Source of the DNA: a virus
Length of the DNA stretch: 64,000 nt
Strand: one strand, 5' to 3'
Virus record (IMG/VR): IMGVR_UViG_3300013104_000005
Location: 4,464-68,463 of that record
Positions within the stretch are counted from its first letter, which is position 1, and each line of letters opens with the position of its first letter. The translations under genes were made by a program, and so were the position numbers. The notes under the pieces are model-generated. The model ran no database searches. It was not told the DNA's origin and worked only from the letters and a program-made list of their open reading frames with translations. Below are positions 10,278 through 25,545 of the stretch, piece after piece.

Positions 10278-10329
10278 AATTCTATCAGGTGTGAGGTGAG
10301 AGAACTGATCGCCTAAATCTCATTAGATC
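10278..10329 (-). repeat. dispersed ~50-bp element, copy A (ATCTAAT...TCTCACCT...GATAGA)
   Basis: Aligns with 22131-22182, including an identical 14-mer CAGTTCTCTCACCT. Confidence 0.7.
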
Positions 10330-10397
10330 CCACGTAGGTCATCGCTGACCAGCACCTACGGCCGACGCCAGTGAGTCCGCGCCGTAGGCGAGAGCAC

Positions 10398-10805
10398 CTA
10401 CCTTCGCCGGGGCGAGACCTGCATGATAAGCTCGATGAGCTCGGTAACCGAAGCGGGCTTAGCCCCTACCAGGACCATCACTTCGTTGGTGAGCTTGGTG
10501 AGAGCGTTGTCCATCGCCACGATCGTAACGGCCTGGGCAGAGTTGTTATAGCTAGTGGGCGTGTCGATGAACTCCTTCAGCATGCCCTCTACTGTCTGCT
10601 GCAGGTGCATCAGGAAGTGGGTTGGCTTCCATTCGCGGATCATGGCCCGCAGCTGCTCGCGATGAGCTTCGCACTTGGCCGCCTCTTCCTCCTGCGTCTC
10701 CTCAGCCTCGTGCTGTTTTACCTCCTCTTCGTCGGTCGAGATGGACCGCTCCTCAACGCCGGGTTGAGGTCCTGCTTCGATGTTTCGCACTTCTCCTTCA
10801 GTCAT
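10398..10805 (-). CDS. hypothetical protein (acidic N-terminus)
   Basis: ORF within the operon. Confidence 0.6.
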   Translation of the reverse strand: MTEGEVRNIEAGPQPGVEERSISTDEEEVKQHEAEETQEEEAAKCEAHREQLRAMIREWKPTHFLMHLQQTVEGMLKEFIDTPTSYNNSAQAVTIVAMDNALTKLTNEVMVLVGAKPASVTELIELIMQVSPRRR

Positions 10806-10832
10806 GTGACTGCCTTTCGTGTGAGAGTGCCG

Positions 10833-11027
10833 CTAGTGAAACCAGAACTCGGCCAGGAACTGATAAGTGTACCTGTTCTCTGTGGCCACCGAGAAGGGTA
10901 CCGTGTAAAGCTGGCCAGTGTAAGACTCGGCCTGCAGTGACGGCGGGTAGATCTCGCCGTCAACATCACATACCTGGCAGACCTCACCCTGGTACATGAA
11001 AAACTCGCCGGCCTGGATAGGCTTCAT
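10833..11027 (-). CDS. hypothetical protein
   Basis: 4-bp overlap with the upstream gene; GAGG SD. Confidence 0.55.
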   Translation of the reverse strand: MKPIQAGEFFMYQGEVCQVCDVDGEIYPPSLQAESYTGQLYTVPFSVATENRYTYQFLAEFWFH

Positions 11028-11914
11028 TGTAACCTCTTTTGAGGGTTCATGTCAACCTTGTCCCCGGCCCTGAGGCCCTCGACGTAAGCGGAATGGTCGA
11101 CCTTGACCTCCTTCGGCTCCACCTCCTTTACGTCAAACTTCTGCTGCATGTACAGGTCGTTGTCTACCTGCTTGGAGTAGACCAGCGCGGTAGCCGCTCC
11201 AGCCTGTAGGGCGCCGCGAGCCTGATAGTCGGCTCGGGTTACCGCACGCTGCTTTTCCTGCCTCAGCCTGTCGGCTAAGCGCTGCGCGATGCCGAGCAAG
11301 AACGCGCCATACCACTTACGCGCGTTGATGTGTGGTCGGTGGTCGCCGATGCGATAGGACTTAGGCACCGACACCATCCGCCCGTTGATGGACACCTGCT
11401 TGAGCTGGTGCACGTTCAGGCCCTGGATGCTCGGGATGCTGAAGCAAGTCGTGTAGCAGAGGTACTCTGCCTGCTCCGACAGCCACTCGTAGAGGGTGAC
11501 CGCGGCAGTGGCGTCGGTGGCCGTGCCGATGAAGACCATGCGGCGCGTCTTCTCCCAGTAGATCATGTTGCAGAAGCAAGCGTCGGCCACGCCCGCTCCT
11601 AGCATAACGCACCAGGCGAAGGGCGTGCTCTTCGGCGCCTTCGTGTCAAACCTGACGTGGGTGGTAATCTTCTTCGACTTCTTGCTGGGGTCGTGGGCCT
11701 CGAGGTCAACGAGCTCGAGCCCGTATTGCAGCAGGATCTCGTTGACCTTCGACGCGGCTACCGCGGCCTCCTGTTCGGAGGCATGTCGCTGCTCAACCGA
11801 GGCCTGAGCGTGCGCCGAACCCTGGGCGGTGTTCAGCAGGGCGAAGATCCGCCGCATGACCCGCTCATCAGGTAAGTTCTTGCCCTCGGTAACGTGAAAC
11901 TGTGCCTCACTCAT
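11024..11914 (-). CDS. DUF2786-domain protein
   Basis: RRIFALLNTA..SEQEAAVAASKVNEILLQYGL, MVFIG, C-terminal AYVEGLRAG. Confidence 0.75.
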   Translation of the reverse strand: MSEAQFHVTEGKNLPDERVMRRIFALLNTAQGSAHAQASVEQRHASEQEAAVAASKVNEILLQYGLELVDLEAHDPSKKSKKITTHVRFDTKAPKSTPFAWCVMLGAGVADACFCNMIYWEKTRRMVFIGTATDATAAVTLYEWLSEQAEYLCYTTCFSIPSIQGLNVHQLKQVSINGRMVSVPKSYRIGDHRPHINARKWYGAFLLGIAQRLADRLRQEKQRAVTRADYQARGALQAGAATALVYSKQVDNDLYMQQKFDVKEVEPKEVKVDHSAYVEGLRAGDKVDMNPQKRLQ

Positions 11915-12437
11915 TACCGCCCTCCCTACCCAAGCAGAAGATGCTGTTGATGAAGGCTTGACCGTAGTAAGCGACCGGATCTACCTTTTCGAGTGTGTTC
12001 TCGCAGAGGAAGGGGTCGACAACGAAGATGCCCTCGTACTCAAAACCGAGCATGTAGCTCGCTGCGCCTTCGGCCTCGAACTGTAGCTCCAGTTGCTTGT
12101 TGAGCTCAGCCAGTTGTTCGGCTTTCTCGCGCAACACCGTCGGCAGGTCGTTAAAGCAGATCGCTGGCTTTTCTAGCAGTAACACGGTCAGTCTCCTGTT
12201 GATGAGCTGCTCGAGCGCTCGAGCGATGATGGTGCCCTCACCTCCCCCAGTCAACAGGGAGTGAACCAGTCGATAGCCGAGTTTGCCGTCGGCCTTGACG
12301 TAAAAGTTACCGCTGGGCTTGAAGGTACCATCACCTTGCCGCACAGCAAACGCGCCTGAGTTGTAGACGCGGAGGGTGAGGATGTAGCCCTGGGGCGTGG
12401 TCACCTGATAGGTGCCCGGCGCCATGTGTGCTATCAT
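11907..12437 (-). CDS. hypothetical protein
   Basis: Packed ORF. Confidence 0.6.
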   Translation of the reverse strand: MIAHMAPGTYQVTTPQGYILTLRVYNSGAFAVRQGDGTFKPSGNFYVKADGKLGYRLVHSLLTGGGEGTIIARALEQLINRRLTVLLLEKPAICFNDLPTVLREKAEQLAELNKQLELQFEAEGAASYMLGFEYEGIFVVDPFLCENTLEKVDPVAYYGQAFINSIFCLGREGGNE

Positions 12438-12805
12438 AGCTTCATCTCCCTCACACACTTGCCACCGAGGCCAGATGAGGCGGTCTTGCCGCCCCTAAGC
12501 GTGCGGTTGCAGGCGTAGCAGCGCCCGGTCTCTTGGGCGTAGAGTTGTCCGGCGGACTGGGGGTGCTTCAGCAGGTCGATGACCATCACGTAGTCACGCT
12601 TGATGGTCTTGGACTTGAAGGGGATGATGTGACCCAGCCTGATGTAACAGACCGGCACCGTTTCACCTGTGTCCTCTGCGTAGCGGTCGATGGTCCACTC
12701 GGGATCTGCGTTCTTCCCAGGATCGTGGGCTCTGACCAGGAACAAGTGCTTGACCTGCTGATCGTCCCTCACTAGGTAACGACCTGAGATCAGCTTTCTC
12801 GACAT
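12434..12805 (-). CDS. DUF6011-like Zn-finger protein
   Basis: YAQETGRCYACNRTL..SSGLGGKC. Confidence 0.65.
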   Translation of the reverse strand: MSRKLISGRYLVRDDQQVKHLFLVRAHDPGKNADPEWTIDRYAEDTGETVPVCYIRLGHIIPFKSKTIKRDYVMVIDLLKHPQSAGQLYAQETGRCYACNRTLRGGKTASSGLGGKCVREMKL

Positions 12806-13000
12806 ACGGTAAACCTCGACTCGTAGTCTGCACTCTGCGCTCTCCGCCTATTCGGAGCGCCGGGCTTGTGACCGGCATCGCCGCATTAACTACCACAAAC
12901 TGGATGGTGGCGGCATCCTCGTACGCTGGCCAGCCGCGTTTCGGTACGCTCGCACGGATGCTCGTTGTCAACGCCTCCACCGCGTTACCACCCATGTCCA

Positions 13001-13333
13001 CTAGTTGAAGACGATCTGAAACTCGGGCTTCTCGAGCGTCGAGTCAACCTCAGTGCCTTCGATAAACACTACCACCTGCACATTAAGCTTAATGCGCAGT
13101 TGGTCGATGTTACTGTCGCTGCCTTCGGGTACCTCTGGGATAGCGTTGAGCATTTCCTCAGCGATGAGGTCGAAGAACGACGCACCTCGCGGGTTGTAAA
13201 TCCGCTTGGCCTCTTCTTCAGCTATCTGGAGAGATAGCTGGCCGGTGATGTCGTCTGGGATGAGCGGAAGTACCTGCTGGTCAAGGTTGTCTTCCTGAAA
13301 CTCCCAGTTTAGGTCATTGTCTACGATGCGCAC
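13001..13333 (-). CDS. acidic hypothetical protein
   Basis: GTG start with GGAGG SD. Confidence 0.6.
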   Translation of the reverse strand: MRIVDNDLNWEFQEDNLDQQVLPLIPDDITGQLSLQIAEEEAKRIYNPRGASFFDLIAEEMLNAIPEVPEGSDSNIDQLRIKLNVQVVVFIEGTEVDSTLEKPEFQIVFN

Positions 13334-13346
13334 TGTCGGTTCCTCC

Positions 13347-13715
13347 TTAGGTACCTGACTCTTCAGTAGGGATACAGATGACCCACTGAGGGTAGGTAGG
13401 ATTATTCACTCGAGTGATGGCCGCGGTGTGCAGCGGGTAATGGCGCACCACGTAGTTGACCGCTTCACTGAGGTTGCCAAAGTCTCGCTCGATGTGTGCT
13501 ATCGTGTTCACGTCCGCAAGCTTGTGGTCTTTGCCCGTCGCTGCGTTGTTGAGGACACGGCTCTTGGCTCCTAGCACCTGTTGTACCAGGGTCGAGCGCA
13601 CGTTGTCAAAGGTCGCGGTGATCTCGTGGCTCAGGATGATGCCGCTCTGACTAAACCTCATGGCTTGACCGCATGGCACTGATGCCAGTGACGCCGACAA
13701 GTCCGAGCTCGTCAA
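13347..13715 (-). CDS. hypothetical protein
   Basis: ORF; start uncertain, probably MRFSQ. Confidence 0.5.
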   Translation of the reverse strand: MTSSDLSASLASVPCGQAMRFSQSGIILSHEITATFDNVRSTLVQQVLGAKSRVLNNAATGKDHKLADVNTIAHIERDFGNLSEAVNYVVRHYPLHTAAITRVNNPTYPQWVICIPTEESGT

Positions 13716-14526
13716 GTGCTTGGTTAAGCAGCGGGCGAGATGCCTCGTCCTTGCAGTCTTGCTCGTCGTAGGAGTCTCGCATCGCCATGTACGCTACTGT
13801 CTGCGGGTGAGCCTTGCACCACTGCTGCATGGACTGCTGGGTAAGTGTAGGCTGCGAGAGCGACTTAAACCGCAGACTGTGGTAAAACGCCCACTGTACC
13901 AGGAGGTGTTGCTGTTCGGGGCCCGGCTCTAGCTGGTCGATGATCCGAGAGAAGGCCTCTACCGCTCGCTCGACGTACTCGTGACCCTTGACTGGGGGTA
14001 GCAGCTTGTAGAACGGCTGGTCGCGCCGGCACTCGAGGAACTCGTAAAGGATACCGTCGAGGTGCGCGCCTGTAAAGTCCGCTCCGTGCACGCAAGACCG
14101 GCTGATGTTGGCCCGCTCCAGGTGGGCGTAGGTGAAGTCAGTCTGCGTGAGGTCGGCGCCCGTAAACCGGGCTCCGCTTAACCAGGCGTAAGCGAAGTTA
14201 GCGTGGGTGAGGTCGGCCCTGTCGAAGTTGGCCAGGTTGGCATCTGCACCGTGAAAGATGGTGTTGTGGCAGGTGGCCCCTGACAGGTAGGCGCTGTTGA
14301 GGTGAGCCCCAGTAAACTGGGCGCCTGTGAGGTCAGCGCGCATGAGGTTGCCGTGTGCTAACTGACAGTTGGTCAGGTTCCGAAACGACAGGTCACGAGC
14401 GTGTAGGTCTACGCTGTGGAGGTCTATCACGAAGTCTGGCTCCGCGTCCCTCATGTCTTTCCAGCGATCTGCGTCGTGTAGCAGCACCTGTAGCAGGCTG
14501 CTACGGTCTAGCTGTGATAACTTCAC
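13651..14526 (-). CDS. pentapeptide-repeat protein
   Basis: A(D/N)LxGA-type repeats (ADLTGAQFTGAHLNSAYLSGA...); GTG start at 14526 with GAGGAG SD. Confidence 0.85.
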   Translation of the reverse strand: MKLSQLDRSSLLQVLLHDADRWKDMRDAEPDFVIDLHSVDLHARDLSFRNLTNCQLAHGNLMRADLTGAQFTGAHLNSAYLSGATCHNTIFHGADANLANFDRADLTHANFAYAWLSGARFTGADLTQTDFTYAHLERANISRSCVHGADFTGAHLDGILYEFLECRRDQPFYKLLPPVKGHEYVERAVEAFSRIIDQLEPGPEQQHLLVQWAFYHSLRFKSLSQPTLTQQSMQQWCKAHPQTVAYMAMRDSYDEQDCKDEASRPLLNQALDELGLVGVTGISAMRSSHEV

Positions 14527-14569
14527 GGTAACTCCTCGTGAGTCTCTAACTGCCACGTGATTGTGGCAT

Positions 14570-14616
14570 ACCGCCTGCCCGACTCGAACGGGCTGCCCAC
14601 TGACTGGGGAGGCAGT
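14570..14616 (-). ncRNA. minimal tRNA-like element (acceptor stem, one hairpin, T-arm)
   Basis: ACUGCCU/AGGCGGU 7-bp stem, CCCA-GUCAG-UGGG hairpin, GCCCG-UUCGAGU-CGGGC T-arm stacked directly on the acceptor strand. Confidence 0.6.
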
Positions 14617-14621
14617 GTCAC

Positions 14622-15119
14622 TTACCCGCCGGGGTGCTCGCAAGCGATGTTGATAGCGTGAGCGCCGGGTGTCGGGTCGTCCCAGCGGATCCTGGTGCCG
14701 CACTCGCGGCAAAGTTGGCACGACTGGCACACCCGCATCGGAACCAGTCCACGAGGGCCCATCGACACAAGCGCCTCGCTTAGTAGGTTACCTGGTAGGG
14801 GAAGCGTACCGCACAACTCGCACCATTCGTACGCGACCTTCCAGACTGGAGCGATGACAAAACCTGTGTGAATACGACGACCGGTGTCCTCAAACAGGCC
14901 AGATGCCAGCGCAGCGTAGGCGAGTGGAATGTTCTCCATCCAGACCTTAGCAAAGAACTCACCCGGCCACAGCGTGTGGGCCTGGTCAGGGATGTTGACG
15001 GAGAGGGTAGCAAGTGGCTCGTGCTCGGTATTCTCTAACTTCACCGCTAAGTTGCTGTCAGGGTACTTAGTGATGACGACCCTAACAACGCCGTCAGGCG
15101 TGTTAAACCTTGCTCTCAT
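14622..15119 (-). CDS. DUF4313-like protein with Cys-rich C-terminus
   Basis: YPDSNLAVKL..EPLATLSVNIP..FAKVWMEN..TGRRIHTGFVIAPV; three CxxC pairs. Confidence 0.6.
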   Translation of the reverse strand: MRARFNTPDGVVRVVITKYPDSNLAVKLENTEHEPLATLSVNIPDQAHTLWPGEFFAKVWMENIPLAYAALASGLFEDTGRRIHTGFVIAPVWKVAYEWCELCGTLPLPGNLLSEALVSMGPRGLVPMRVCQSCQLCRECGTRIRWDDPTPGAHAINIACEHPGG

Positions 15120-15153
15120 AGTTACCTCTAACGTATGGAGTGTGTAGAGTGTC

Positions 15154-15210
15154 TGCTCTCGTCAGTGGCCGCTTTACGACCAGACCGTGGCTACGCCACG
15201 GTTTCGGCAT
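15154..15210 (-). ncRNA. hammerhead ribozyme (type II, stem II open)
   Basis: UGCC-GAAA-CCGUGGC(GUA)GCCACGG-UC/UGGUCG(UAAAG)CGGCCA-CUGACGA-GAGCA. All core nucleotides present; predicted GUC cleavage between 15183 and 15182. Confidence 0.88.
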
Positions 15211-15440
15211 GGGTAGTAGGTAGCAAGAGGCCCAAGGTACTCTTGTTAGGTTGTAACCCAGGGCCTCTTACCTGAGAGATCGGATTGTCCGTAGTTTGCC
15301 ATCCCTCGTGGCTTCGGGACTACCGCGTGACTCATAAAGCTTGTTGCTACTAAGCTCGTCGTTCTCAAGCCAGAGGCGGTAATCACCCGAAACTAAGCGT
15401 AGGATAACCTACGCCCTGGCGGGTACCTTGTGAGTTGGCG

Positions 15441-15584
15441 TTAGCGCCTGTTGTACGCCTGATAACCGCGCCTCACGCACCCGCCGCAGTGTCGTTGAGG
15501 GACAGTCCTGCCGCGCCGCCGCACGCGTCGCCAGCCGACGACACGCCGACCACACTTAACGCACTTAAACCTGAGCGTGTTCAA
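15441..15584 (-). CDS. 47-aa Arg-rich Zn-finger microprotein
   Basis: Manual translation MNTLRFKCVKCGRRVVGWRRVRRRGRTVPQRHCGGCVRRGYQAYNRR; the TTG start overlaps the upstream TGA; GGAGG SD. Confidence 0.6.
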   Translation of the reverse strand: MNTLRFKCVKCGRRVVGWRRVRRRGRTVPQRHCGGCVRRGYQAYNRR

Positions 15585-15895
15585 TGTCGGCTTACCTCCA
15601 GGATGAGCGACTTCAGGTCGTCGATGGTCGGTTCCTCGTCGGGGTTAACCACTGCGATGGATCGGTCACGGTAGTCAGTAGCGATGGGACGGTCTAACAC
15701 CAGGTAGGTGCCTACAGCGAGGGCCTCCTCAGGTGCCAGGTCGTGGAAGTTGAAGACACCCAGGAAGGACTTGACCTTAGCGGGTGGTGCCTCGTGAGTA
15801 ACGAGCAAGATGATGGGGTCTCGGACTGGCCAGTTAAAGCCGTCGGTGCCCTGGTAGCTAAACGACCCCGAGACCGTGAGCAAGTGTTTAAGCAC
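15581..15895 (-). CDS. hypothetical protein
   Basis: Packed ORF. Confidence 0.6.
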   Translation of the reverse strand: MLKHLLTVSGSFSYQGTDGFNWPVRDPIILLVTHEAPPAKVKSFLGVFNFHDLAPEEALAVGTYLVLDRPIATDYRDRSIAVVNPDEEPTIDDLKSLILEVSRH

Positions 15896-16304
15896 GCTTC
15901 GCCATCTTGTCTAGCAACAGGTCGATGTCGTTGCAGAGCGTTACGCTGAAGTCGAAGAGGCGGGTGAGGACCACGACGTTAAGTCGGTCGTGTGGGGTAG
16001 TCACCGTGAACCCGTTCTGCATGATGGCACCTAAGGCGCCCATGAGGTGGACCGCGAAGTGACTCACGCCCACTCGCTTGATGTCATCGGCGAGGTCGGC
16101 CACAGCCTGGTCGCAGGCGAGGTCGTCTTCAGTGGTCTCGTTGAGGTCACCGATGTCCTGGGCAGTGTGGGCTCGGGTGAGGATGTCGTCAAGCATCTGC
16201 TTGAGGCTTGGGTTGTTGTCACGGGTCCGGAAAGCGTATTCGAACAACTCGTTAACCGTGACCTGACTGGTCTCCTTCGGCACATCTTCCTTCCTTCGGC
16301 TCAT
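15888..16304 (-). CDS. hypothetical protein
   Basis: Start MSRRKE; ATGA overlap with the upstream gene. Confidence 0.6.
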   Translation of the reverse strand: MSRRKEDVPKETSQVTVNELFEYAFRTRDNNPSLKQMLDDILTRAHTAQDIGDLNETTEDDLACDQAVADLADDIKRVGVSHFAVHLMGALGAIMQNGFTVTTPHDRLNVVVLTRLFDFSVTLCNDIDLLLDKMAKRA

Positions 16305-16909
16305 CGGCGCACCCTCTCTATCACTCGACACTCGATGCCGCAACCGGCCAAAGACCCGACCGCTGTCAACAATACCTGCGTATCACTGTACTCGCGGACG
16401 GAGCTGAAGAACTGGCTCCTCGGCTTCACCTGCAGAACCACCACGCGCCCGAACTTCAGGCTGAACGTGGGCGACGCGTGATTGACCAGTCGGTAACCGG
16501 CGGGGATGCTATCCGGTGCCGGCGCCTTCACCTTGGGCTGTGGACGAGGTCTAAGGTCATCTCGTCGCGGCAACTTCGATTCCTCCAGGTGCTTGTTGTC
16601 ATTCTGGTGACCCGGACCCAGGGGGCAAGGTCGGCCCTGATGGAACTTCTCGTAACGCCGATACGCTCGCTGGTTGACATCTGCCTTTTGACCGCCATCC
16701 TGGCAATTCGGCAGAGGCTCCAGCTCGTTCAGCTCGTCAACCCGTCGGAGGCGGAAGATCTTCCCCCGCCAGATCCGGTGAGTCTTCGGTAACGGGTGCC
16801 CCTGGGCGATATACGCCTCGAAGTCGGGGTCGCCCTTGCTCGGCGCCGGGTCAGGCTTGAACATCACCTCCGTGTCGCCGTGCATGAGCTTCGGATTGAA
16901 CCTGCTCAT
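16301..16909 (-). CDS. basic hypothetical protein
   Basis: 202-aa ORF with GGAG SD, directly after the twister ribozyme. Confidence 0.65.
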   Translation of the reverse strand: MSRFNPKLMHGDTEVMFKPDPAPSKGDPDFEAYIAQGHPLPKTHRIWRGKIFRLRRVDELNELEPLPNCQDGGQKADVNQRAYRRYEKFHQGRPCPLGPGHQNDNKHLEESKLPRRDDLRPRPQPKVKAPAPDSIPAGYRLVNHASPTFSLKFGRVVVLQVKPRSQFFSSVREYSDTQVLLTAVGSLAGCGIECRVIERVRR

Positions 16910-16928
16910 TGATACACTCCATGTAGGT

Positions 16929-17000
16929 AGTGATCTACTCTGCTCTCCCCCTCGGTCGGGGGCGCCGGACTTGTAACCGGCATTGTAGCATTAGATCACT
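16929..17000 (-). ncRNA. twister ribozyme (type P1, with P5 hairpin)
   Basis: AGUGAUC-UAA-UGCU-ACAAU-GCCGG-UUACAAGU-CCGGC-[CCCC/GGGG hairpin]-AGCA-GAGUA-GAUCACU. P1, P2, P4 and both pseudoknots (UAC/GUA, AC/GU) can form; predicted U/A cleavage at 16993/16992. Confidence 0.9.
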
Positions 17001-17030
17001 GGGCAGGGGGAGGTGAATTCCCCCTGCCCT
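17001..17030 (-). other. strong hairpin GGGCAGGGGG/CCCCCUGCCC between an ORF stop and the twister
   Basis: Inverted repeat with no U-tract; could protect the 3' end of the upstream cleavage product. Confidence 0.6.
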
Positions 17031-17037
17031 GTTCTTG

Positions 17038-17793
17038 TTAGATTGTAACTGCGTCGGGGACCTCCGTTGCCTCGACGACCGGTTCTGCCAGCGGCTCCAT
17101 CACCGGCGGCAACTCGTCGACCACCGGCGTCGTGGGCTCAGTCGGGTCAGGGGTGATAGGACTCACCGTGTCAGGGGCGTTGGCGGTGAATGCCTTCACC
17201 TGGTTGGCGGTATTCCGTGCCCAGATGAGGCAGAGCTCACGCGCACGCTCTTGCTTCTTGGTGATCTGGGGACGCCCTCCGGGGCTCGGCATACATACCT
17301 GCGTGGGCAGATGCATGGCTCGGAAATACCCGGGCTTGTCTGGGGTCGTGATAACCGCATAGTGACCGTTGACGCGCTCTACGATCATGTCCTCGGTAAA
17401 ATCCGTCACCGGCGGTGGCGTCTGTGCTGTGTAATTCTGACCAGCCTTCGGCGTCTTCGGCGCCTTCGGCTCTCCAGTCGCCGTCGACGCGTGGGGCTTC
17501 CGCAACTTCAACTTCAACTGGCTGAGCTGCTGGGCGGCATCTGCCATCGTCATGCCTGTCGTGTCGATCCGGTCAATCTTGAGTGCGTCGCAGAGCTGCT
17601 CGATTGCCATCAACTGGGATGCCGCTGCCGGCGCGTGGTTGATGGGTGGCAGGGGCTCCTGCGGTGGGGCGGTCGCCTCCGTGGGAGCAGGCTCCGCAAC
17701 CGGCTCCTGTACTTCCGGCTCAACCGGCTCGGCCGGCTGCGTCGGGGTGGTTGGGGCAGACCCGTGCCCGTTGTTGCGGTTCTTCTTAGCCAT
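17038..17793 (-). CDS. Pro/Ala/Glu-rich hypothetical early protein
   Basis: Start MAKKNRNN with GGAG SD. Confidence 0.7.
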   Translation of the reverse strand: MAKKNRNNGHGSAPTTPTQPAEPVEPEVQEPVAEPAPTEATAPPQEPLPPINHAPAAASQLMAIEQLCDALKIDRIDTTGMTMADAAQQLSQLKLKLRKPHASTATGEPKAPKTPKAGQNYTAQTPPPVTDFTEDMIVERVNGHYAVITTPDKPGYFRAMHLPTQVCMPSPGGRPQITKKQERARELCLIWARNTANQVKAFTANAPDTVSPITPDPTEPTTPVVDELPPVMEPLAEPVVEATEVPDAVTI

Positions 17794-17799
17794 CGTGTA

Positions 17800-18486
17800 T
17801 CTCCAACCTGTAAAGGTTTGGGCTCCTCTCCACGTGCCCGCAGCTATTCGCGGTTCCAGACTTGAGACTGGCATGGTAGTGTTAAAGCGCCGCAGATATT
17901 GCTTCCCCTCATTAGAAGAGGGAATCTTCCGCGGCGACGGTCATCACCGGTCAACGACGTACTCGGTAGAGCTGTGATGCCGAGCTCGACCCGTCAGATC
18001 GAAACAATCACTCGAGGTCAATGTCGTTGGGGCAACCCATCAGTTATCAGTCACCTGTCGCCGTCGATCGTTACTTCCTCACCACTGCCAGTCGGATATT
18101 AGTTGGTCATCTGCTGGTCGTTGGACTCCGGTTTAGGCGTCGACCCGTTGGACATGTCGTAGGGCTCGAGGCGTAAGGTAAGTCAGCGGGCTTTGATTTT
18201 CCCACTGAGCCTTGTCGCCTGTCGCGGCCCAAACAACGGTTTGGTTTCAGGCTCTGTCGCGGTGCCAGGGTGGGCCATGAGGCTCTTGGGCACCGTCCTT
18301 ATTCCCTTGTTAACGGTTTTCGGTCATCTTCCGCACAAGCACGGCACTGAGGACCAGTCGGGTCGTTATATCCCCGGAGAGAACCACGGTCATCGCGGAT
18401 CTGGCTCCCTCAAACTGAGATGATGACACAACAGCCCCCATAGGGGGAAACACTAGAACCCTGTTCTGTGTATCATTTATCATCAT
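17800..18486 (-). ncRNA. putative large structured ncRNA or 5' leader with many YGAC motifs
   Basis: Follows a TTGACA/TACAAT promoter; no credible minus-strand ORF; many hairpins; 21 YGAC motifs counted on the transcribed strand in 17940-18393. Confidence 0.55.
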
Positions 18487-18489
18487 TCT

Positions 18490-18519
18490 ATTGTATCACA
18501 CTTATCCCCAGTTTGTCAA
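18490..18519 (-). promoter_or_regulatory. sigma70-type promoter TTGACA-18-TACAAT with extended -10
   Basis: tgtcaa 18514-18519, attgta 18490-18495; ATGATGATAA at the expected start site. Confidence 0.75.
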
Positions 18520-18577
18520 CTAGTTTTGAGATGAGTTACCGGTATTTTGGGGCAGGGGGAGGGTCGGCGAAGCACAC

Positions 18578-18610
18578 AAAAAAGCGGCGCCGCGATGAGG
18601 CGGCACCGCT
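18578..18610 (-). terminator. intrinsic terminator
   Basis: AGCGGUGCCGC/GCGGCGCCGCU stem followed by a U-run, after ORF 18630. Confidence 0.8.
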
Positions 18611-18629
18611 AGTGAGGGAGGGTAGGCAA

Positions 18630-18800
18630 CTAGCGCGACCTGTTCGCTAGCCAGTAGCAGGTGGCCCCAGCGAGGAGGGAGATGACTAGGGCCACAGCGA
18701 AGTCAACCGGGTAGGGGCTAAGTGAGGCGAGGGCCAGGCAATAGCCTCCCCCAGCGAAGAGGGCCAGGAGGGAGGGTTGGGTCTGGTGGGTAGGCTGCAT
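18630..18800 (-). CDS. small two-TM membrane protein
   Basis: Two hydrophobic stretches; AAGGA SD. Confidence 0.55.
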   Translation of the reverse strand: MQPTHQTQPSLLALFAGGGYCLALASLSPYPVDFAVALVISLLAGATCYWLANRSR

Positions 18801-18854
18801 GGTAGGTCCTTTCAAGGTGCCCTGGCCCTCGCGGACCAGGGCGGGATGGGCCCC

Positions 18855-19091
18855 TTACGGGGCGATAAGTCCTTCGATGTAATCGGTCACGACGTCCTGG
18901 GTAACGGGGTCGATGTGATTGACCTCGTAGTAATCGGCCGCGCGGTCCTCGCCGGCCTGCCTCGCCTCGGTGACCGAGTCGAAGGGACCGAACTGTTGGG
19001 CGTGGCCCTCGGCGATGTCCTGGGCAAGGGTTCGCTCCTGGGCATCTGGGTTATCAGCGAAAGAGCGATAGATGACCAAACTGAACTTCAT
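18855..19091 (-). CDS. hypothetical protein
   Basis: Start MKFSLVIY with GGAGG SD. Confidence 0.65.
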   Translation of the reverse strand: MKFSLVIYRSFADNPDAQERTLAQDIAEGHAQQFGPFDSVTEARQAGEDRAADYYEVNHIDPVTQDVVTDYIEGLIAP

Positions 19092-19179
19092 GGTAATGCC
19101 TCCTGGATAGGTGCTGTGTACTAGGTTCCTGTAAATGATGGATGCCCCGTATCCAGCGATACGGGGCACCTGTTACCTG

Positions 19180-19428
19180 TTAGGCAACTTGTTCGGCAAC
19201 CGGTTCGGCAACGGAGGCATCAGAAACGATGCCGGCTCGTCGATCCTGATCCAGCACCTCTGCGCTGGATCCCTTCATCCAGGACGCTGCCAGTTCCGCG
19301 GCCCGATCCCGTTTACGCGTTACGATCGGTTTTCCCGCGGGTGTCAACATGAACCGGCCCGATCCCGTATCCTGTATCGCGTAGAAATTCGGCTTGGCAG
19401 CCGGAACAACAATCGCAGTAATCTTCAT
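19180..19428 (-). CDS. early hypothetical protein, paralogue 1
   Basis: MKITAIVVPAAKPNFYAIQD...; clear paralogue of 19847-20170. Confidence 0.75.
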   Translation of the reverse strand: MKITAIVVPAAKPNFYAIQDTGSGRFMLTPAGKPIVTRKRDRAAELAASWMKGSSAEVLDQDRRAGIVSDASVAEPVAEQVA

Positions 19429-19552
19429 GGGTATCTCCTGGCAATATGCCGGGGATGATGCCGGTGCCCCCGGCAGGGGATGATGACAAGAACACAAGAC
19501 TGGTCAGAGATTCTGGACCAGACTGGATTTTATCGTTTATCATCATGTATAC

Positions 19553-19614
19553 ATTGTATCACATCGCCGGATAGTTGTCAATATTATTTAATATTTATTA
19601 TATCAATAAAGGAA
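19553..19614 (-). promoter_or_regulatory. sigma70 promoter TTGACA-17-TACAAT with AT-rich UP element
   Basis: The 41-bp block 19574-19614 is identical to 20298-20338. Confidence 0.85.
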
Positions 19615-19801
19615 CCCGCGTGTTTTGAGGGGGTAGGAGGGGTACAGTTGCAACATTACCAACGACCCTACAGGGTGAGGGGCAGGGGATAAGCGATACC
19701 GTTTTAATAGTATTAATTAACCACTGATAGGGTTGCAACATAACCGATAAGGGTAAGTGATGGGGGTAGGTAGAGCAAACCAGTACAGGCTCGCCAGTGA
19801 C

Positions 19802-19835
19802 AAAAAAAGACCCCCACCCCTTTCGGGGTAGGGGC
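19802..19835 (-). terminator. intrinsic terminator
   Basis: CCCCUACCCC-GAAA-GGGGUGGGG stem followed by U7. Confidence 0.85.
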
Positions 19836-19846
19836 GAACTCACCAG

Positions 19847-20170
19847 TTACTTCTTGCTCTTGCCCTTCTTGCCAGTCGCGGCAACCGGTTCGGGGGAAAC
19901 CGCCTCGGCGATTGCCTCCTCCAATTCACCGGTTGAGAGAGACCGGTCAGAGATATCGGTCACCTTCACCAATCCCTGCCGGCGATCCTGATCCAGCACC
20001 TCCGCGCTCTTGCCGCGCATCCAACTCTCCGCCAGCTCCTTCGCCCGTTCCGGTCGCCGCGTGATGATGGGCAACCCCTTGGGCGAGAGCAGGAACCGGC
20101 CCGACTCGTCATCCTGGATGGCCCAGAAATTCGGTTTTGCCGCACGAACCACGATTGCCTTGATTGCCAC
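19847..20170 (-). CDS. early hypothetical protein, paralogue 2
   Basis: GTG start, MAIKAIVVRAAKPNFWAIQD...; GGGAGG SD. Confidence 0.75.
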   Translation of the reverse strand: MAIKAIVVRAAKPNFWAIQDDESGRFLLSPKGLPIITRRPERAKELAESWMRGKSAEVLDQDRRQGLVKVTDISDRSLSTGELEEAIAEAVSPEPVAATGKKGKSKK

Positions 20171-20276
20171 GATAACCTCCCTGCGTAAAGACCGGTGCCG
20201 CCGGTGCGGATGAACATGATGCTGGTGCCTTAGGTAGGGACCAGTTTGTATTGTTATCATCATTTATTATGTATAC

Positions 20277-20338
20277 ATTGTATGCCATTCCATTCCGGTT
20301 GTCAATATTATTTAATATTTATTATATCAATAAAGGAA
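20277..20338 (-). promoter_or_regulatory. sigma70 promoter TTGACA-17-TACAAT with AT-rich UP element
   Basis: Duplicate of the promoter at 19553-19614. Confidence 0.85.
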
Positions 20339-20588
20339 AAAGACCTGGTAAGGGGCATAAGACCGGTCAGGATGGGAGGACTGGCAAGGGATGGGAGATC
20401 TATCATCTACCGTAGGTAGGGATGAGGAGGAGGGTGAGAGGGGCCAAGGCGTCCTTGCTGAGGGGAAATGGGGAGGGGCAAGGGGGTCTATATCTCAATG
20501 GTTATGTCTCAATGGGGGTACCTGGGGTAGGTAGGCGAGGTGGATTGGTCTCGTTGTCACATAGTGAGCGGGGACTGATCTTGTAGCA

Positions 20589-20700
20589 ACATAAGGGTGG
20601 GTGAATGAGATGGTATGGTTGAGATATAACCATCGGCACATAAGGGGCAGGGGCGCAGGTAGGATGGTTGAGACTCAACCATCGGTACATAAGGGGTAGG
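20589..20700. repeat. 49-bp-period direct repeats containing an ATGGTT/AACCAT palindrome
   Basis: ATGGTTGAGA...AACCATCGGYACATAAGGGGYAGG at 20615-20651 and 20664-20700; ACATAAGGG at 20589, 20638 and 20687. Confidence 0.8.
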
Positions 20701-21840
20701 TCGCTCACCGGTTGGGTGGGTAGGTAAGGCGAAGGTGGGAGGCCCCCTACAGGAGTAGGCCAGACAGGCGAGGCAGCAGGTCGTAGGACTGGGCAGGTAG
20801 GTCAGCGAGACCGGAGGCGGAGTAGGCTACAGGGGGTAGGCAGGCGAGGTGAGGCAGACGGCTTGGTGAGGTGAGGTGAGCGGGTAGTGCGTAGTCAGGT
20901 AAGCGAGAGCGAGGCGAGGTGGGCAGCGAGAAGGTGCCTGGCGCCTGGTGTGGTGGGTAGGTGAGAGGGGCGCGGTGCAGGCGCGGTGGCGGTCGTAGCG
21001 AGGGTGGGTCCGGGTGGTCAAGCGGGACGGTGGCAGGTCAGGCGGGCAGTGAGCGAGCGAAAGCGGGGTGGTGTGGTAGGTAGGCGAGAGCGCGGCGCAG
21101 GCTCGCTATAGGGGTGCGGTGCGGCGCAGGCGGGGTAGGTGGCAGGTGAGGTCAGCGCCGGGTGACCTGGGCAGCGAGACAGGGCAAGGCGGGTAGTGTG
21201 GTGAGGCGCGGCGAGGGTCAGGCAGGTGAGGTAGCGAGGGTCAGGCGGGTGACGTGGTGAGAGGGTACGCGTGGGTCAGTAGGTGCGGTGAGGCGTGAGG
21301 CGGGCAGTAAGAGCGGGGTGGGTGGGTAGTGTGGTGGAGGTCGGTGAGGTGGTCGGGTCAGTGGCGAGGTAGGTCGTGAGCGAGGTCAGCGGGGTGGTGG
21401 TCAGTGGTCAGTAGGTAAGGTTAGGTGGGATGGTGGTCGTGAGAGCGGGGTTGGCGGTAGCTGGGCGGGTGGTCTGGGAGGTGACGTGGTGGTGAGGCGG
21501 GCGCGCGGTGCGGTGATGAGGTGCATAGGTGCGGTGAGGGGTGAGCGGAGGTAGGGTAAGCGGGGTAGGTGCGGTGGTGGCAGCGAGAGGAGGGTAGGCA
21601 GGTAGGGTGATGGGAGGTGGGTGAGTGAGAGGTGCGGCGCGGCAGGTGGGTGGTGAGCGGGTTGCAGGCGTGGCCGGGTAGTGAGGTGAGGTGAGCGGGT
21701 AAGTGAGGTGAGGTGGCGGTTGGGTTGGGTGAGAGGGTGCGAGTGATGGTGAGATAGCGTGGGGAGGGATGGTGGCAGTCGTGAGGTTGGAGCTTATGGT
21801 TGTGTAGCGAGTGGCAGAGGGCGTAGAACGTAGGTAAAAG
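20700..21840. other. low-complexity G-rich non-coding tract (GGTGAG/GGTAGG/GCGAG motifs)
   Basis: Strong G over C excess on the + strand; only spurious Pro/His/Thr-rich ORFs. Confidence 0.85.
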
Positions 21841-22130
21841 GGTCGGAGACTGGTCCACCCGCACATTTCACTGTCTCCCGTCATTTTGCCGCGATGTTAG
21901 TCACCTGCTTGGCGAGGTGACCGACGAGACCCGCGCCGAGGTAGACCAACCAGGTAGTGTATGTCGGCGTTGCGTTGGGCGTTTGTGGGCCGCTAGACCC
22001 CACTGGTTAAAGAACGAGCGGCCTTCGGTTTTGTGCCCCCTCCCCCTACACCTCCAGCACTTGGGATAGCCCTTGCTTAAAGCACCATTAACATCATCAT
22101 CACATAACCTCAGCCCAGAACGACCACCAT

Positions 22131-22182
22131 GATCTAATTAGAAAAAGCTGACAGTTCTCTCACCTATCAACGATAGATTCAA
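22131..22182 (+). repeat. dispersed ~50-bp element, copy B
   Basis: GATCTAATTAGA...CAGTTCTCTCACCT...GATAGATTCAA. Confidence 0.7.
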
Positions 22183-22257
22183 TGGTGGTCATCCTGGCAT
22201 CAACCTACCCCCTTCCTGTATGATTATCCCCTCATTATGCCCCTATCCCCTCGCCTA

Positions 22258-23136
22258 TCACCCACGCCGCAGCTTCACCGCAGGCCTACGTGTGCCTATC
22301 ACCACAGCACTACTCACCTCAGGCACACTCACCTTAACGTTTACCTCGCTAATCTTATTCGGCAACTTGACTACCTGAGCGTTCACGCAGTCAAACGCGT
22401 GGTTGCCCTGCGAGTCTACAGAGCAAAACGCACACTGCTCTACCTCACCCTCGCCTTCACCGCTATCTTTCACCGCATACCCGTGAAAACCAGGGATCAT
22501 ACTCTTGCCCGCCGACACTCGCTGCAGGGCCTCTGCCGCTAACTTCTCCCGCTCGGCTCGTGTGCCGATTGACTTGCCCTGGTACTGCGTATGAATGCGC
22601 CCCTGCTGATCGTACACGCTGACCACGTTCTCGGGCTTCACCTCACCCCACACCTCACTCACCTCGATGCCCTTACCTACCTCACGCACCTCATCACTGC
22701 CTCGCACCTCATCACTTCCACTTCCCCGTGCCTCACGCACCTCACGGTGAGTCTCGATCGTGCGCTGACCGTCCATCCTCTCCTCACCCGCTAAGTTCGT
22801 AAGCTGAGGCAGCATATCTGCTCGCGCTAGCTCCCTACGCTCGGGCCGCAGGATGAAGTCCTCTCGCCGCAGCCCGTTGACCCTGAGGTGGTTGTAGACC
22901 GTTTGCCAGGTCCACGGCTTGAAGTAGGGCGTTAACTGCCCGGCCTTGTTTAGCTCATCTGCGAGCTGCGCGTACGAGGGCCAATAGCCGTATACCTCAT
23001 CCCAGGTCTCGAGCAGCCGGGTCATCACTTGCTTAGTCAACAGCATCCTGCGCTCGCGGAATGTCATATTCTTTGCGCGACTTATTAACTCGGTGGGCAT
23101 GTTATTCGGTATCGGCTCTTCTACTAATCTCATCAC
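22258..23136 (-). CDS. protein with recombinase-like helix-turn-helix domain
   Basis: SYAQLADELNKAGQLTPYFKPWTWQTVYNHL resembles the serine-recombinase DNA-binding motif; no catalytic domain seen. Confidence 0.6.
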   Translation of the reverse strand: MMRLVEEPIPNNMPTELISRAKNMTFRERRMLLTKQVMTRLLETWDEVYGYWPSYAQLADELNKAGQLTPYFKPWTWQTVYNHLRVNGLRREDFILRPERRELARADMLPQLTNLAGEERMDGQRTIETHREVREARGSGSDEVRGSDEVREVGKGIEVSEVWGEVKPENVVSVYDQQGRIHTQYQGKSIGTRAEREKLAAEALQRVSAGKSMIPGFHGYAVKDSGEGEGEVEQCAFCSVDSQGNHAFDCVNAQVVKLPNKISEVNVKVSVPEVSSAVVIGTRRPAVKLRRG

Positions 23137-23148
23137 ATTCTACCTTTC

Positions 23149-23727
23149 TTATCGCCTCACTCGCAGCCTCAACAGCTCTTGCCGCTCGGCCTCTATCGCT
23201 AGCCCCTCGTCCAAGCTAACCTTACCTGCTACCACCGACTTATCCAACTCTTCAGCGCTGATGCCACTACTCAAGATATCCTGCAGTACACTCTCACCAC
23301 TCTCCCTACTCGTGTCGACGCCGGTATCCTTCAGGATCTGGCCTCGCATCACGACGTCCCGCTCAAACGCTGTGTACCACCACTCCTTCATCTGTGAGGC
23401 TAACTTCCAGCGCTGCACGAAGTAGATCAGCTGCATCCGCGTCCAGTCATGCCGGCTACCGATGGACCGAGCGTTGAACATGCCCGCCAGTTCCTTGAAC
23501 CCCGGCTGCGGCTTCTGCTCCTTACCCGCGGCCTCAACTGCCTCCCTAATCACCCTGATGCCCGCGTCTCTTGACTTATCGCTACCGTCTATCGCGGCGT
23601 AACAGTGTCGACACGCTACGATCGGTAGGGTCCCTATGATGTAATCACGCGCGTCATACGAGCCACAGTACATACACTTGTAGGTGATCTTTCGCTCCTT
23701 CTTGCCGCCGTCTCCGATGCTGGCCAT
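23149..23727 (-). CDS. hypothetical protein with N-terminal Zn finger
   Basis: CMYC...CRHC; GGAGG SD; extended -10 TG-A-TATAAT at 23789-23797. Confidence 0.6.
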   Translation of the reverse strand: MASIGDGGKKERKITYKCMYCGSYDARDYIIGTLPIVACRHCYAAIDGSDKSRDAGIRVIREAVEAAGKEQKPQPGFKELAGMFNARSIGSRHDWTRMQLIYFVQRWKLASQMKEWWYTAFERDVVMRGQILKDTGVDTSRESGESVLQDILSSGISAEELDKSVVAGKVSLDEGLAIEAERQELLRLRVRR

Positions 23728-23853
23728 ACTTGCCTCCTCCCTTGCCTTACGCTCCCCTTGCCGCATACCACAGTATTCACCCCTATCTATTATATCACCT
23801 TAGTAAACCTTTTGTTCGTTCTACGACAAGCCCAAAATACACTACTAGAATCA

Positions 23854-24150
23854 CTTATATCTCAATAATATGAACTTAGTATAATATATCTCATTTACTA
23901 TAATTACATCTGAAAAACCATATTAGGGGGATTTTCTCAAACCCTTATACTATTTCTTTTACTACTTCTTCCACTACTTTTATAACTATTATACTTATAT
24001 CAATGTACTACGTGCAATACTATATAATAGAAATAGTATTAGAAATAGTAATAGATATAGGGTTTCAGAAATCATCTAATATACGATTTTTCCGATGTAA
24101 TTGAGGTAATTGAGAAAATCAAGTCTTGGTTTATATCATCGAGATATAAG
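23854..24150. repeat. ~300-bp AT-rich imperfect palindrome at the early/late divergence
   Basis: Paired arms CTTATATCTC/GAGATATAAG, AATTACATCTGAAAAA/TTTTTCCGATGTAATT and TATTAG..AAACCCT/AGGGTTT..CTAATA. Confidence 0.8.
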
Positions 24151-24298
24151 GGCGCTGCCGCCCTCTTCTGCACCCACTCGCGTGCCCCACTCACGCCTCT
24201 ACCTCGCGGCGAGATGCTTTACACGCCCTGCCGCCCTACCCTCACCCTCGCTCGCGCCCTCCTGTTCCTTACCACTCTCGCCACCCCTCAGGTCGCAT

Positions 24299-24350
24299 CA
24301 TCTAATCAATTTACGCCCTAAGGAACCTACCCCTCAAACGTGATTAGAAA
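24299..24350 (+). repeat. dispersed ~50-bp element, variant copy
   Basis: TCTAATCA ... TGATTAGA inverted ends spanning 48 bp. Confidence 0.45.
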
Positions 24351-24367
24351 CTAATTCGTGCGCCTCG

Positions 24368-24396
24368 TTGACAGGGTCGTCGCGGCGTGATACAGT
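24368..24396 (+). promoter_or_regulatory. sigma70-type promoter TTGACA-17-TACAGT with extended -10
   Basis: Lies directly upstream of the rightward operon. Confidence 0.65.
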
Positions 24397-24417
24397 ATAC
24401 GGAGGCGTAACCGTAGC

Positions 24418-24906
24418 ATGCACATCAAGCTTCGGACTGTTTTAGCATACTTTGTATCGTGGGACCCTGAGGCCACCGAACTGCAGAACGGCTGGCTATC
24501 CTTACTCTTGGGTATTCGTTGCCTAACCGCTCCACTGTGGCCGCTGTTCGCTATAAGTCCTCATTACTATCGAGGCATGTCGCAGATCGCTGGGGAGGGC
24601 GTGTGGGGATTGACCTTGGTAGGGTTAGGGGCACTACAGCTGATAGCGGTGTGGGGCTGCATGAGGTCCCTCAGCGACGGCTGGGCACGCTACTTCCAGC
24701 TTCGGTCGTGGCTGTCGATCCTCTCGTCGGGCCTGTGGGCGTTGGTCTTGTGGGCGTTGGCCTCGACCGACGATCGTACCCTGGGGTGCATCTTCTTCTT
24801 CGTGATGTGGATGAGCTCGCTGAGTGTGGTGGTCAGGCTACACTCGGCTGGCCGCGCGGTGACCGTGGACGTGCACGACGCCCACGATATCCCAGGTGGA
24901 GGTTGA
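24418..24906 (+). CDS. multi-pass membrane protein (possibly lysis-related)
   Basis: About four hydrophobic segments; GGAGG SD. Confidence 0.65.
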   Translation: MHIKLRTVLAYFVSWDPEATELQNGWLSLLLGIRCLTAPLWPLFAISPHYYRGMSQIAGEGVWGLTLVGLGALQLIAVWGCMRSLSDGWARYFQLRSWLSILSSGLWALVLWALASTDDRTLGCIFFFVMWMSSLSVVVRLHSAGRAVTVDVHDAHDIPGGG

Positions 24907-24962
24907 CCTGTTACCTAAGCGATAGTCACTACCGTCACGCTCGGTGCTGGGAGTGGAACTGG

Positions 24963-25544
24963 ATGACCCCAAAGCTAACAGATGCCGGCTTCGGCGCCTT
25001 TTTCGCTGCTGTGGTGATGTTCATCGGGCTAGTCATCAAGCAGTTTTTTGCCAATCCTTCCCAGCGAAACGACCGACGGAAGTCCGATGAATCCGCTGCC
25101 CAGACCTTCCGCGAAGACATCCTGAAAGAGCTACACCGCGTGAAGGAGGCGCAGCGACTGCAGGAGTCGGAGTGGCGCCGCACGCTCTACCTGCAGGAGC
25201 GAGAGACACTGCGGTGGCGGTACTACTCGTTTGACCTGTTAGACTGGTGCGCGCAGATGCGCATCACACACATGGACCTGCGGCATGAGTTTGACGTGAT
25301 AAAGCGGGATATGGGGCAGGACCCCATCAAGTGGAGTGACCTGCCGCCGATCCCTAACTTGAAAGACAGTAATACCTACGAGTTGGAGCAGCAACAGCCC
25401 CAGACGGCGAGGGCCATCCCTACTCCTAACCTCTCCCAGCCTGAGTGTCCACCTGCCAAGCCTACCCAGACTGAGGTGAAGGTCACCGTTACCGACGCCG
25501 TGGACGCGTTGGTCAACACCCTAACGCAGCAGAAGGAGGAATAG
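24963..25544 (+). CDS. membrane-anchored coiled-coil protein (lysis region)
   Basis: Start moved to MTPKLTD; one N-terminal TM followed by a charged helix. Confidence 0.6.
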   Translation: MTPKLTDAGFGAFFAAVVMFIGLVIKQFFANPSQRNDRRKSDESAAQTFREDILKELHRVKEAQRLQESEWRRTLYLQERETLRWRYYSFDLLDWCAQMRITHMDLRHEFDVIKRDMGQDPIKWSDLPPIPNLKDSNTYELEQQQPQTARAIPTPNLSQPECPPAKPTQTEVKVTVTDAVDALVNTLTQQKEE

Positions 25545-25545
25545 C

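Follow-up and report, generated by a model that had tools for sequence, protein, structure and literature searches.

The subject of this analysis is a stretch of about 690 nucleotides (nt), between positions 18486 and 17800 of a 64-kb viral DNA window, that is free of open reading frames (ORFs) and appears to specify an abundant non-coding early RNA ending at a twister ribozyme. The window, to which all positions refer, comprises bases 4464-68463 of a 68,463-bp virus record, on which 123-bp direct terminal repeats are found. An earlier note, made from the letters alone, had described a terminator, then a consensus promoter, then some 690 nt with no credible ORF before ATG 17793, the whole rich in the tetramer YGAC (Y, pyrimidine) on the transcribed strand. 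These landmarks all lie where they were placed, the terminator at 18610-18583. The transcription unit, read along the minus strand, has the following parts:

18583..18610, minus strand: intrinsic terminator that closes the upstream small-gene unit, with an 11-bp stem (9 G-C pairs) and a 6-nt loop followed by the T run TTTTTTGTGTG
18490..18519, minus strand: sigma-70-type promoter, TTGACA-18-TACAAT with a TG extension, 11/12 matches, predicted start near 18483
18422..18484, minus strand: predicted 5' hairpin of ~63 nt, from folding, with an inner terminator-like hairpin at 18451-18434; missing from the abundant RNA contigs
17884..18417, minus strand: body of the abundant non-coding RNA, ~534 nt, with all 21 YGAC sites, supported by RNA contigs and low coding scores
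17940..18395, minus strand: YGAC-rich core, 21 sites, including GAUGACC four times, GCGACAG three times and AACGAC three times, with five close doublets or triplets spaced 5-7 nt
17822..17888, minus strand: twister ribozyme of type P1 that has a P5 hairpin but lacks P3, cleavage predicted at U17884/A17883
17038..17806, minus strand: GGAG ribosome-binding site and a gene of 251 amino acids (aa; ATG 17793) without relatives, coding score 0.344, GC content at third codon positions (GC3) 0.77

The promoter is one of four on the minus strand with 11/12 matches in 10000-28000, an interval in which a scan gave 16 promoter-like sites as compared with 5.9 +/- 2.6 in shuffles. The stretch itself is single-copy and has no long internal repeats, its repeats and its other copies in the genome being only words of 10-17 nt. 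A search of the phage genome for antisense targets gave nothing beyond chance-level 11- to 17-mers.

The stretch is non-coding by every test run, which bears out the claim that it holds no credible ORF. Its nine ORFs of at least 25 aa, on both strands, score -0.30 to 0.08 per codon by log-odds trained on the long genes of the phage. On this scale the long training genes average 0.39, neighbouring early genes mostly reach 0.2-0.45 (two are lower, at 0.11 and -0.14) and out-of-frame ORFs lie at -0.19 +/- 0.25. The GC3 of the nine ORFs is 0.41-0.68, as against 0.74, and in a sliding coding scan no frame stayed at gene-like values for more than one window. Searches of the ORFs against PHROGs and Pfam gave no match at a curated or meaningful level (best E 0.051 and 0.062). 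It is improbable that the transcript is the messenger of one or more very small proteins with a long 3' tail. The best candidate for such a protein is a 27-aa ORF (18393-18310), partly hydrophobic in its peptide and preceded by a Shine-Dalgarno-like GAGGGAG that lies 7 nt from the apparent mature 5' end of the RNA, which it adjoins, and 11 nt before the AUG. This ORF scores 0.078, whereas in-frame windows of the neighbouring gene score 0.16-0.58; the enclosing 58-aa ORF has a GC3 of 0.58 compared with 0.74; there is no family match; and the 27 codons take up only 84 of the ~534 nt and 4 of the 21 YGAC sites. The GAGGGAG near the 18417 end could serve this ORF, or it could stabilise the end through ribosome binding.

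The YGAC count given in the earlier note is exact: 17940-18393 holds 21 copies on the transcribed strand and 3 on the plus strand, with GATGACC occurring four times, CGACA six times and GCGACAG three times, and with five site pairs 5-7 nt apart. No other 454-nt window on either strand of the 64 kb reaches 21, the next highest holding 15 (minus) and 14 (plus). The chance expectation of about four proved too low, the mean across the window being 5.1 and that of dinucleotide-preserving shuffles of the stretch 9.28 +/- 2.37 (mean and standard deviation). Since none of 5000 shuffles reached 21 (largest, 19), the excess is real, although it is ~2.3-fold and not 5-fold. The RNA body, 17884-18417, gives the same picture, with 21 sites where 9.1 are expected and 0 of 2000 shuffles reaching that number. 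GAC follows a pyrimidine (C or T) in 21 of 22 cases. The sites fall 6/9/6 over the three frames, and codons are therefore not the explanation. Measured against dinucleotide expectation, the excess is a specific property of this RNA. That it might be common to other ORF-poor stretches was considered and rejected: a C-rich stretch of the early block has 24 sites where 23.0 are expected, and 15210-15580 has 3 where 2.9 are expected.

If the stretch were a decayed gene or drifted sequence that had merely kept a habit of placing GAC after pyrimidines, the signal would have no function in RNA or DNA. GAC makes up 4.7 % of codons in the long genes of the phage, and two neighbouring genes do show a milder, codon-driven YGAC excess with strand bias (17 sites as against 11.0 expected, and 14 as against 9.6). 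Against this, the sites show no frame runs, six adjacent site pairs sharing a frame as compared with ~6.7 expected at random by a hand count, and no frame keeps its coding score beyond one window. YGAC density is above that of every gene in the window, and the stretch has its own strong promoter and yields the most abundant RNA of the region. We regard a compositional leftover as quite improbable.

Clustered DNA sites, which the earlier note had raised as an alternative in the form of primase recognition triplets, find no support. In this reading the words would act as GTCR on the plus strand, as primase start sites, origin iterons or operator heptads, activated by transcription from the promoter. 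Transcription-activated origins are known from phages T7 and T4, and the locus resembles the T7 primary origin in having a strong promoter, a non-coding stretch and a strand-biased triplet in a phage that encodes a primase-helicase; the strand asymmetry is strong, and the words run with a 6-7-nt period. The T7 primase site is GTC preceded by G/T G/T on the template strand, and only 4 of the 21 sites fit that pentamer context (GGGTC once, TTGTC once, TGGTC twice); the invariant pyrimidine lies on the side that T7-type primases are not known to read. Unlike the T7 origin, the stretch is not AT-rich (GC 0.55-0.56), and its RNA builds up in free form to high abundance. The global GC skew does not turn at this place, and an AT-rich gap of GC 0.28 at 23767-24109, between the divergent early and late blocks, looks from its composition to be the better candidate for an origin or unwinding element. 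A signal at the level of DNA is very improbable.

The last 67 nt of the ORF-free stretch, whose nature had been missed in the earlier note, match the Rfam type-P1 twister model (RF03160) at 17888-17822 with 23.7 bits (expectation value, E, 0.052 in 2.5 kb) and end 28 nt before ATG 17793, so that the RNA would have a defined 3' end. A UAA internal loop at 17884-17882, holding the U-A cleavage step, directly follows the 4-bp P1 (GCUU/GAGC). P2 has 3 of 4 pairs; P4 (CCAG/CUGG) is paired at all four positions and closes a loop, L4, that retains the GU...AAG.C positions; and a P5 of 5 bp is present. Both pseudoknots form with Watson-Crick pairs throughout, T1 as AC/GU (2/2) and T2 as CUC/GAG (3/3), both partners of each being changed relative to the Rfam consensus. 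Thus the stretch has the UAA loop, P1, P2, P4, L4 words, T1 and T2 of type-P1 twisters, and differs from them in its low score, its rare P5, the lack of the common P3, the changed pseudoknot bases and a mismatch in P2. In part of a published account of the class, T1 and T2 are described as linking L4 to two internal loops, a conserved guanine at the bottom of P2 as a twister feature, and the optional stems P0, P3 and P5 as occurring in 21, 78 and 1 % of twisters, respectively (PMC6154101).

At the gathering score Rfam gives no match in the window. At a relaxed threshold (E up to 10) nine matches appear, of which five are self-cleaving ribozymes, all on the minus strand; an HH9 match inside a gene is weak and was taken as chance. 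Besides the copy at 17888-17822, the following belong to the set:

16929-17000, minus strand: second twister, type P1 with a 7-bp P1 and a P5; cmscan 17028-16965, 27.1 bits; T2 UAC/GUA; 19 nt before ATG 16909
12823-12893, minus strand: third twister; cmscan 12892-12827, 27.4 bits; T2 CAC/GUG, with a 3-nt spacer before P1; 17 nt before ATG 12805
15209-15147, minus strand: type II hammerhead; 34.9 bits (gathering 37), E 0.0024; 27 nt before ATG 15119

The second twister is really of type P1, cmscan having taken an upstream hairpin as P1 and so misread it as P5-type. The hammerhead has the core words CUGACGA, GAAA and GUC with stems I and III of 6 bp, and follows an ORF-poor stretch of ~370 nt (15210-15580). 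Re-parsing by script gave one layout for all three twisters. After UAA come a P2 of 4 nt, a T1 strand of 2 nt and a P4 of 4 bp, which closes the conserved L4; P4 is separated from the 3' strand of P2 by a hairpin of 5 bp with 6 nt in its loop, and beyond that strand stand GA, a T2 strand of 3 nt and P1. The extra hairpin is taken to be P5 because the element order of the Rfam P5-type model places P5 there, and three copies that bear P5 and lack P3 are therefore of an uncommon form. The conserved guanine at the bottom of P2 is present in all three, as the first base of GAGAG directly after the P2 3' strand. T2 reads CUC/GAG, UAC/GUA and CAC/GUG in the three copies, as compared with CCC/GGG in the consensus, and T1 reads AC/GU twice and GC/GC once; every one of these pairs perfectly. 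A generic descriptor built from the Rfam consensus line, requiring P4, T1, T2 and at least 3 of 4 P2 pairs, picks out these three sites and no others in the genome, and gave no hit on either strand of 300 dinucleotide-shuffled genomes. Four related loci, taken as a control, were free of ribozyme matches at E up to 5 over 48,056 bases. To judge from the folds, the copy at 17888-17822, the weakest of the three, is probably a real twister and the other two are very probably so.

Searches of IMG/VR with a 21-nt twister stretch and with an IUPAC twister pattern found nothing. A metagenome contig found by a 19-nt twister stretch (L005) was rejected as a relative, being an unrelated run of tandem twister-like units; these are ~61 nt long, occupy positions 1-180 of the contig and have the same L4 loop word as the twister at 17888-17822.

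Expression was followed in public sequence runs, 20 of the 21 listed holding part of 12700-19000 and six holding at least half of the sampled words. The runs with this interval all come from soil or rhizosphere, and five are RNA libraries. Contigs of two metatranscriptome runs (X5 and X6) and two DNA runs (X7 and X8) were compared over these 6.3 kb. The RNA body is represented by X5 record 7 (17926-18416, depth 48.7) and X6 record 16 (18054-18417, depth 66.7), the deepest contigs of the interval in both RNA runs. The gene downstream is covered at depth 18.7 in X5 (17414-17872) and 16.2 in X6 (17048-17872), the other RNA pieces listed have depths of 3-14, and the upstream unit, before the terminator, is at 4.6 in X5 and 0-0.5 in X6. 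Contig depth thus rises at least 10-fold across the promoter in both RNA runs, and the RNA body stands 2.6- to 4.1-fold above the downstream mRNA. The DNA contigs are flat, at 2.3-4.1, and the unevenness is therefore a signal of RNA and not of carried-over DNA. The region is transcribed.

The ends of these contigs bear on processing. The pieces listed sum exactly to the bin depths (21.0 and 8.35 for 17764-17974, 4.62 and 6.63 for 18397-18607, in X5 and X6, respectively), so that no further RNA contig lies in 17873-17925 (X5), 17873-18053 (X6) or 18418-18607 (both). The RNA gaps (18418-18607, 17873-17925 and 16974-17029/17047) were used only where a DNA contig bridges them, or else as a hint. 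In X5 and X6 alike the contigs break off at 17872, which lies 11 nt within the 3' product that cleavage is predicted to give, and no RNA contig crosses U17884/A17883, a step that is crossed by a DNA contig (X7 record 22, 17663-17979). A similar break is seen at the second twister, where the stop common to the two RNA runs is 16973, 19 nt into the product of the predicted cut U16993/A16992; no DNA contig is present there.

At the other end the abundant contigs begin at 18416 and 18417 in the two runs, ~66 nt below the promoter-predicted start and just past the 63-nt hairpin 18484-18422, where a DNA contig (X7 record 23, 18285-18532) bridges the RNA-contig start at 18417. Since no good promoter is seen that would start transcription at 18417, this 5' end is more likely to come from processing of the hairpin, and an assembly break may be the alternative. 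A circular form or a second ribozyme at the 5' end was considered and set aside, since there is no Rfam match there (E up to 10) and there are no contig joints; by eye, no fold like that of a hammerhead or hepatitis delta virus ribozyme was seen near 18417. The X6 contig carries 27 loose letters at 18417 that are absent from the window, allowing up to 3 mismatches, and were treated as a chimera.

The explanation that we favour, and consider reasonably probable, is that the stretch gives rise to an expressed non-coding early RNA from an independent early unit, probably released by the twister. The strong host-type promoter at 18519-18490 would drive a transcript whose first ~66 nt, forming the long hairpin, are probably processed away, being absent from the abundant species. 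The twister would cut between U17884 and A17883, freeing an RNA of ~534 nt (18417 to 17884) with an end expected from twister chemistry to be a 2',3'-cyclic phosphate. The mRNA left for the 251-aa gene would have a 5'-hydroxyl and, 28 nt before the start codon, a folded ribozyme. The freed RNA would then build up over that mRNA to the extent that contig depth indicates (2.6- to 4.1-fold). The layout of the unit, the missing coding signal, the twister fold with its two pseudoknots, the expression and the interruption of RNA contigs at the cut are observed, whereas cleavage in vivo, the nature of the two ends and the function are inferred.

The same cleavage could also serve the gene downstream and nothing else. 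If the stretch were only a cis-acting leader that tunes or delays expression of the 251-aa gene, for instance by keeping the ribosome-binding site hidden up to the cut, the fragment would be a stable by-product and the YGAC words incidental. All four ribozymes, the three twisters and the hammerhead, end 17-28 nt before early start codons, which suggests that they act on the 5' end of the mRNA downstream and not in the upstream piece. In addition, the GGAG region is paired with distant 5' sequence in the full-length fold, although long-range pairing in a 692-nt minimum-free-energy (MFE) structure is weak evidence. In the portions of the literature drawn on here, processing roles of this kind are suggested (PMC6765202, PMC3088659), and the functions of bacterial and phage ribozymes are called largely elusive, with processing of polycistronic mRNA proposed (PMC6765202). 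A leader leaves unexplained why a compact phage should keep ~0.5 kb without coding content at this place, given that the gaps holding the other two twisters measure 129 and ~195 nt, and it accounts neither for the 2.3-fold motif excess nor for the pyrimidine before 21 of 22 GACs. A working RNA is favoured over a by-product because the RNA is long for a compact genome, has a promoter of its own and is abundant, and a leader alone seems to us unlikely.

Several observations weigh against a twister-released RNA with a motif-based function. Contigs cannot show true RNA ends, and the shared stops were rated only a weak hint; the gaps rest on bin arithmetic over the pieces listed, with 18 further pieces not itemised; and X5 and X6, two studies that share year and habitat, may belong to a single campaign. 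The break at the third twister was dropped as a sign of cleavage: the X6 contig there stops at 12877, 10 nt inside the product, and as a DNA contig starts at the adjoining 12876 the break is uninformative. Instead of being cleaved, some transcripts could terminate at a GC-rich hairpin (~17935-17888) with CUUU directly after it. The twister match is below gathering (23.7 as against 67.2 bits) and has an E of 1.3 over the 64-kb window, on a covariance model that cannot score pseudoknots and penalises the 16-nt P5 insert; one position of its P2 (CACU/CGUG) is a U-C mismatch, and P1 is short, with 4 bp that include a G-U. YGAC density, at 3.8 per 100 nt, is only 1.2-1.7 times that of the neighbouring GAC-codon-rich genes (2.2-3.1). 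The many hairpins remarked on in the earlier note are not special, the 534-nt body having an MFE of -188.5 kcal/mol and a z-score of -1.31, with 12 of 100 shuffles folding as well (the whole stretch has a z-score of -2.05 by 20 shuffles). Nor are the YGAC words enriched in loops, their unpaired probability in a partition-function fold being 0.37 as compared with a background of 0.42 (permutation p 0.80). Finally, the searches made found no relatives usable for covariation or for a test of conservation of the RNA.

What the RNA does is the weakest step. It may act in trans, as an early RNA that offers many single-stranded YGAC copies to a host or phage factor, which we hold to be doubtful. A multi-site decoy is the most concrete guess because of the word excess with its near-invariant pyrimidine. 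In its specific form, in which an RNA with a twister-cut 3' end, protected by the cyclic phosphate, soaks up a host YGAC-binding factor such as a defence ribonuclease or an RNA-binding regulator, this guess is more doubtful still. The decoy or scaffold RNA that the earlier note proposed therefore survives in part: the RNA is transcribed, non-coding and without an Rfam family, but its YGAC words have no loop bias, its fold is ordinary and GGA is scarce. The RNA resembles the CsrB/RsmZ sponges in being non-coding, several hundred nt long and marked by a short word that recurs ~20 times on one strand at irregular spacing; unlike in the sponges, the word is YGAC and not GGA, which is under-represented in 17940-18393 (7 as against 11.4 expected), and is not concentrated in predicted loops. 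Like GOLLD and ROOL, it is a long non-coding RNA in a phage genome, and unlike them it has no Rfam match at the thresholds tried, an unexceptional fold and no homologues backing a conserved structure. As the earlier note expected of a novel RNA, Rfam gives no hit at gathering in 17793-18486, where nothing but the sub-threshold twister scores at low E. On the present evidence the sponge is a tentative reading.

The surrounding genome gives the setting. Head, tail and packaging genes lie on the plus strand from ~24.4 kb on, while below 23.8 kb the minus strand carries a long block of early and replication genes, including a primase-helicase (matching phrog_47 and phrog_239 at window 1-2208), a helicase and a Sak4-like annealing protein, together with many proteins without a family. 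There is no close cultured relative, the large terminase matching five cultured-phage records at only 22-30 % identity. In IMG/VR this protein has three short relatives (44-58 % identity), none of which reaches the early region. The nearest terminase in species genomes, at 51 % identity, lies at 7668-8933 of a 33.6-kb contig (L006) in a Blastocatellia (Acidobacteriota) genome bin, a weak hint that the host belongs to Acidobacteriota; no ribozyme match was found in the 18.9 kb of this contig examined. A blastn search of 17700-18700 against 50,697 phage records gave zero matches, and for the 251-aa protein IMG/VR gave no relative, the candidates drawn from 5.8 billion proteins containing no match but the protein itself. 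The sequenced runs laid against the window are nearly identical to it, with six variant places listed in 6.3 kb, of which only 18145 is inside the RNA, and therefore give no test of conservation.

Other features of the early block, all on the minus strand, may be recorded here. At 13651-14730 an early protein is encoded in which Pfam PF00805 detects pentapeptide repeats (E 1.9e-24). Two small early proteins, at 19180-19497 and 19847-20263, share an AAKPNF(W/Y)AIQD...SGRF block and are likely paralogues, each sitting behind its own 11/12 consensus promoter (19581 and 20305). The transcribed strand of ~1.5 kb at 20400-21950 is extremely rich in C (up to 0.56), poor in G (0.09-0.18) and packed with CTCACC, CCTACC and CTGACC; the sole long ORF (21408-21884) scores -0.03 for coding. 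This segment has the look of a C-rich transcript without structure and is a candidate Rho-loading site or Rho decoy. Two ORFs just upstream of it, at 22250-23750, are G-rich on the same strand (G 0.35-0.41), giving a local GC-skew swing of +0.43 and then -0.31. A tandem pair of near-identical hairpin-like units of ~35 nt lies at ~20620-20700, just below the C-rich stretch.

Arrays of ribozymes placed before genes are already known in print. In the part of the account of Perreault et al. (2011) used here, arrays of hammerheads flank genes in prophage transcripts, and in haloviruses HF1/HF2 a hammerhead stands 13 nt before an early start codon, with a mapped 5' end that matches the cut (PMC3088659). 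The phage studied here resembles the arrays of that account in having several ribozymes within a few kb of one transcribed strand, each before a gene. It differs from what is described there in mixing three twisters with one hammerhead, and in that one twister ends a promoter-proximal non-coding RNA of ~0.5 kb instead of parting two genes. Fungal and plant RNA viruses are said to use ribozymes in 5' untranslated regions for translation initiation (PMC13725137). A non-exhaustive literature search found neither an abundant, motif-rich, promoter-proximal non-coding RNA ended by a twister nor a ribozyme-matured sponge.

A single early transcription region of the phage thus contains three twisters and a hammerhead, all of them shortly before start codons, and contigs from public metatranscriptomes hint at cleavage in nature. 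That hint makes it testable whether the cuts set the 5' ends of mRNAs, release a working RNA, or both. With no relatives and a strand-specific word excess, the RNA is therefore a candidate for a new kind of phage early RNA. If the decoy were to prove real, it would give a twister of a bacterial virus a concrete biological job, in the form of a sponge RNA matured by a ribozyme.

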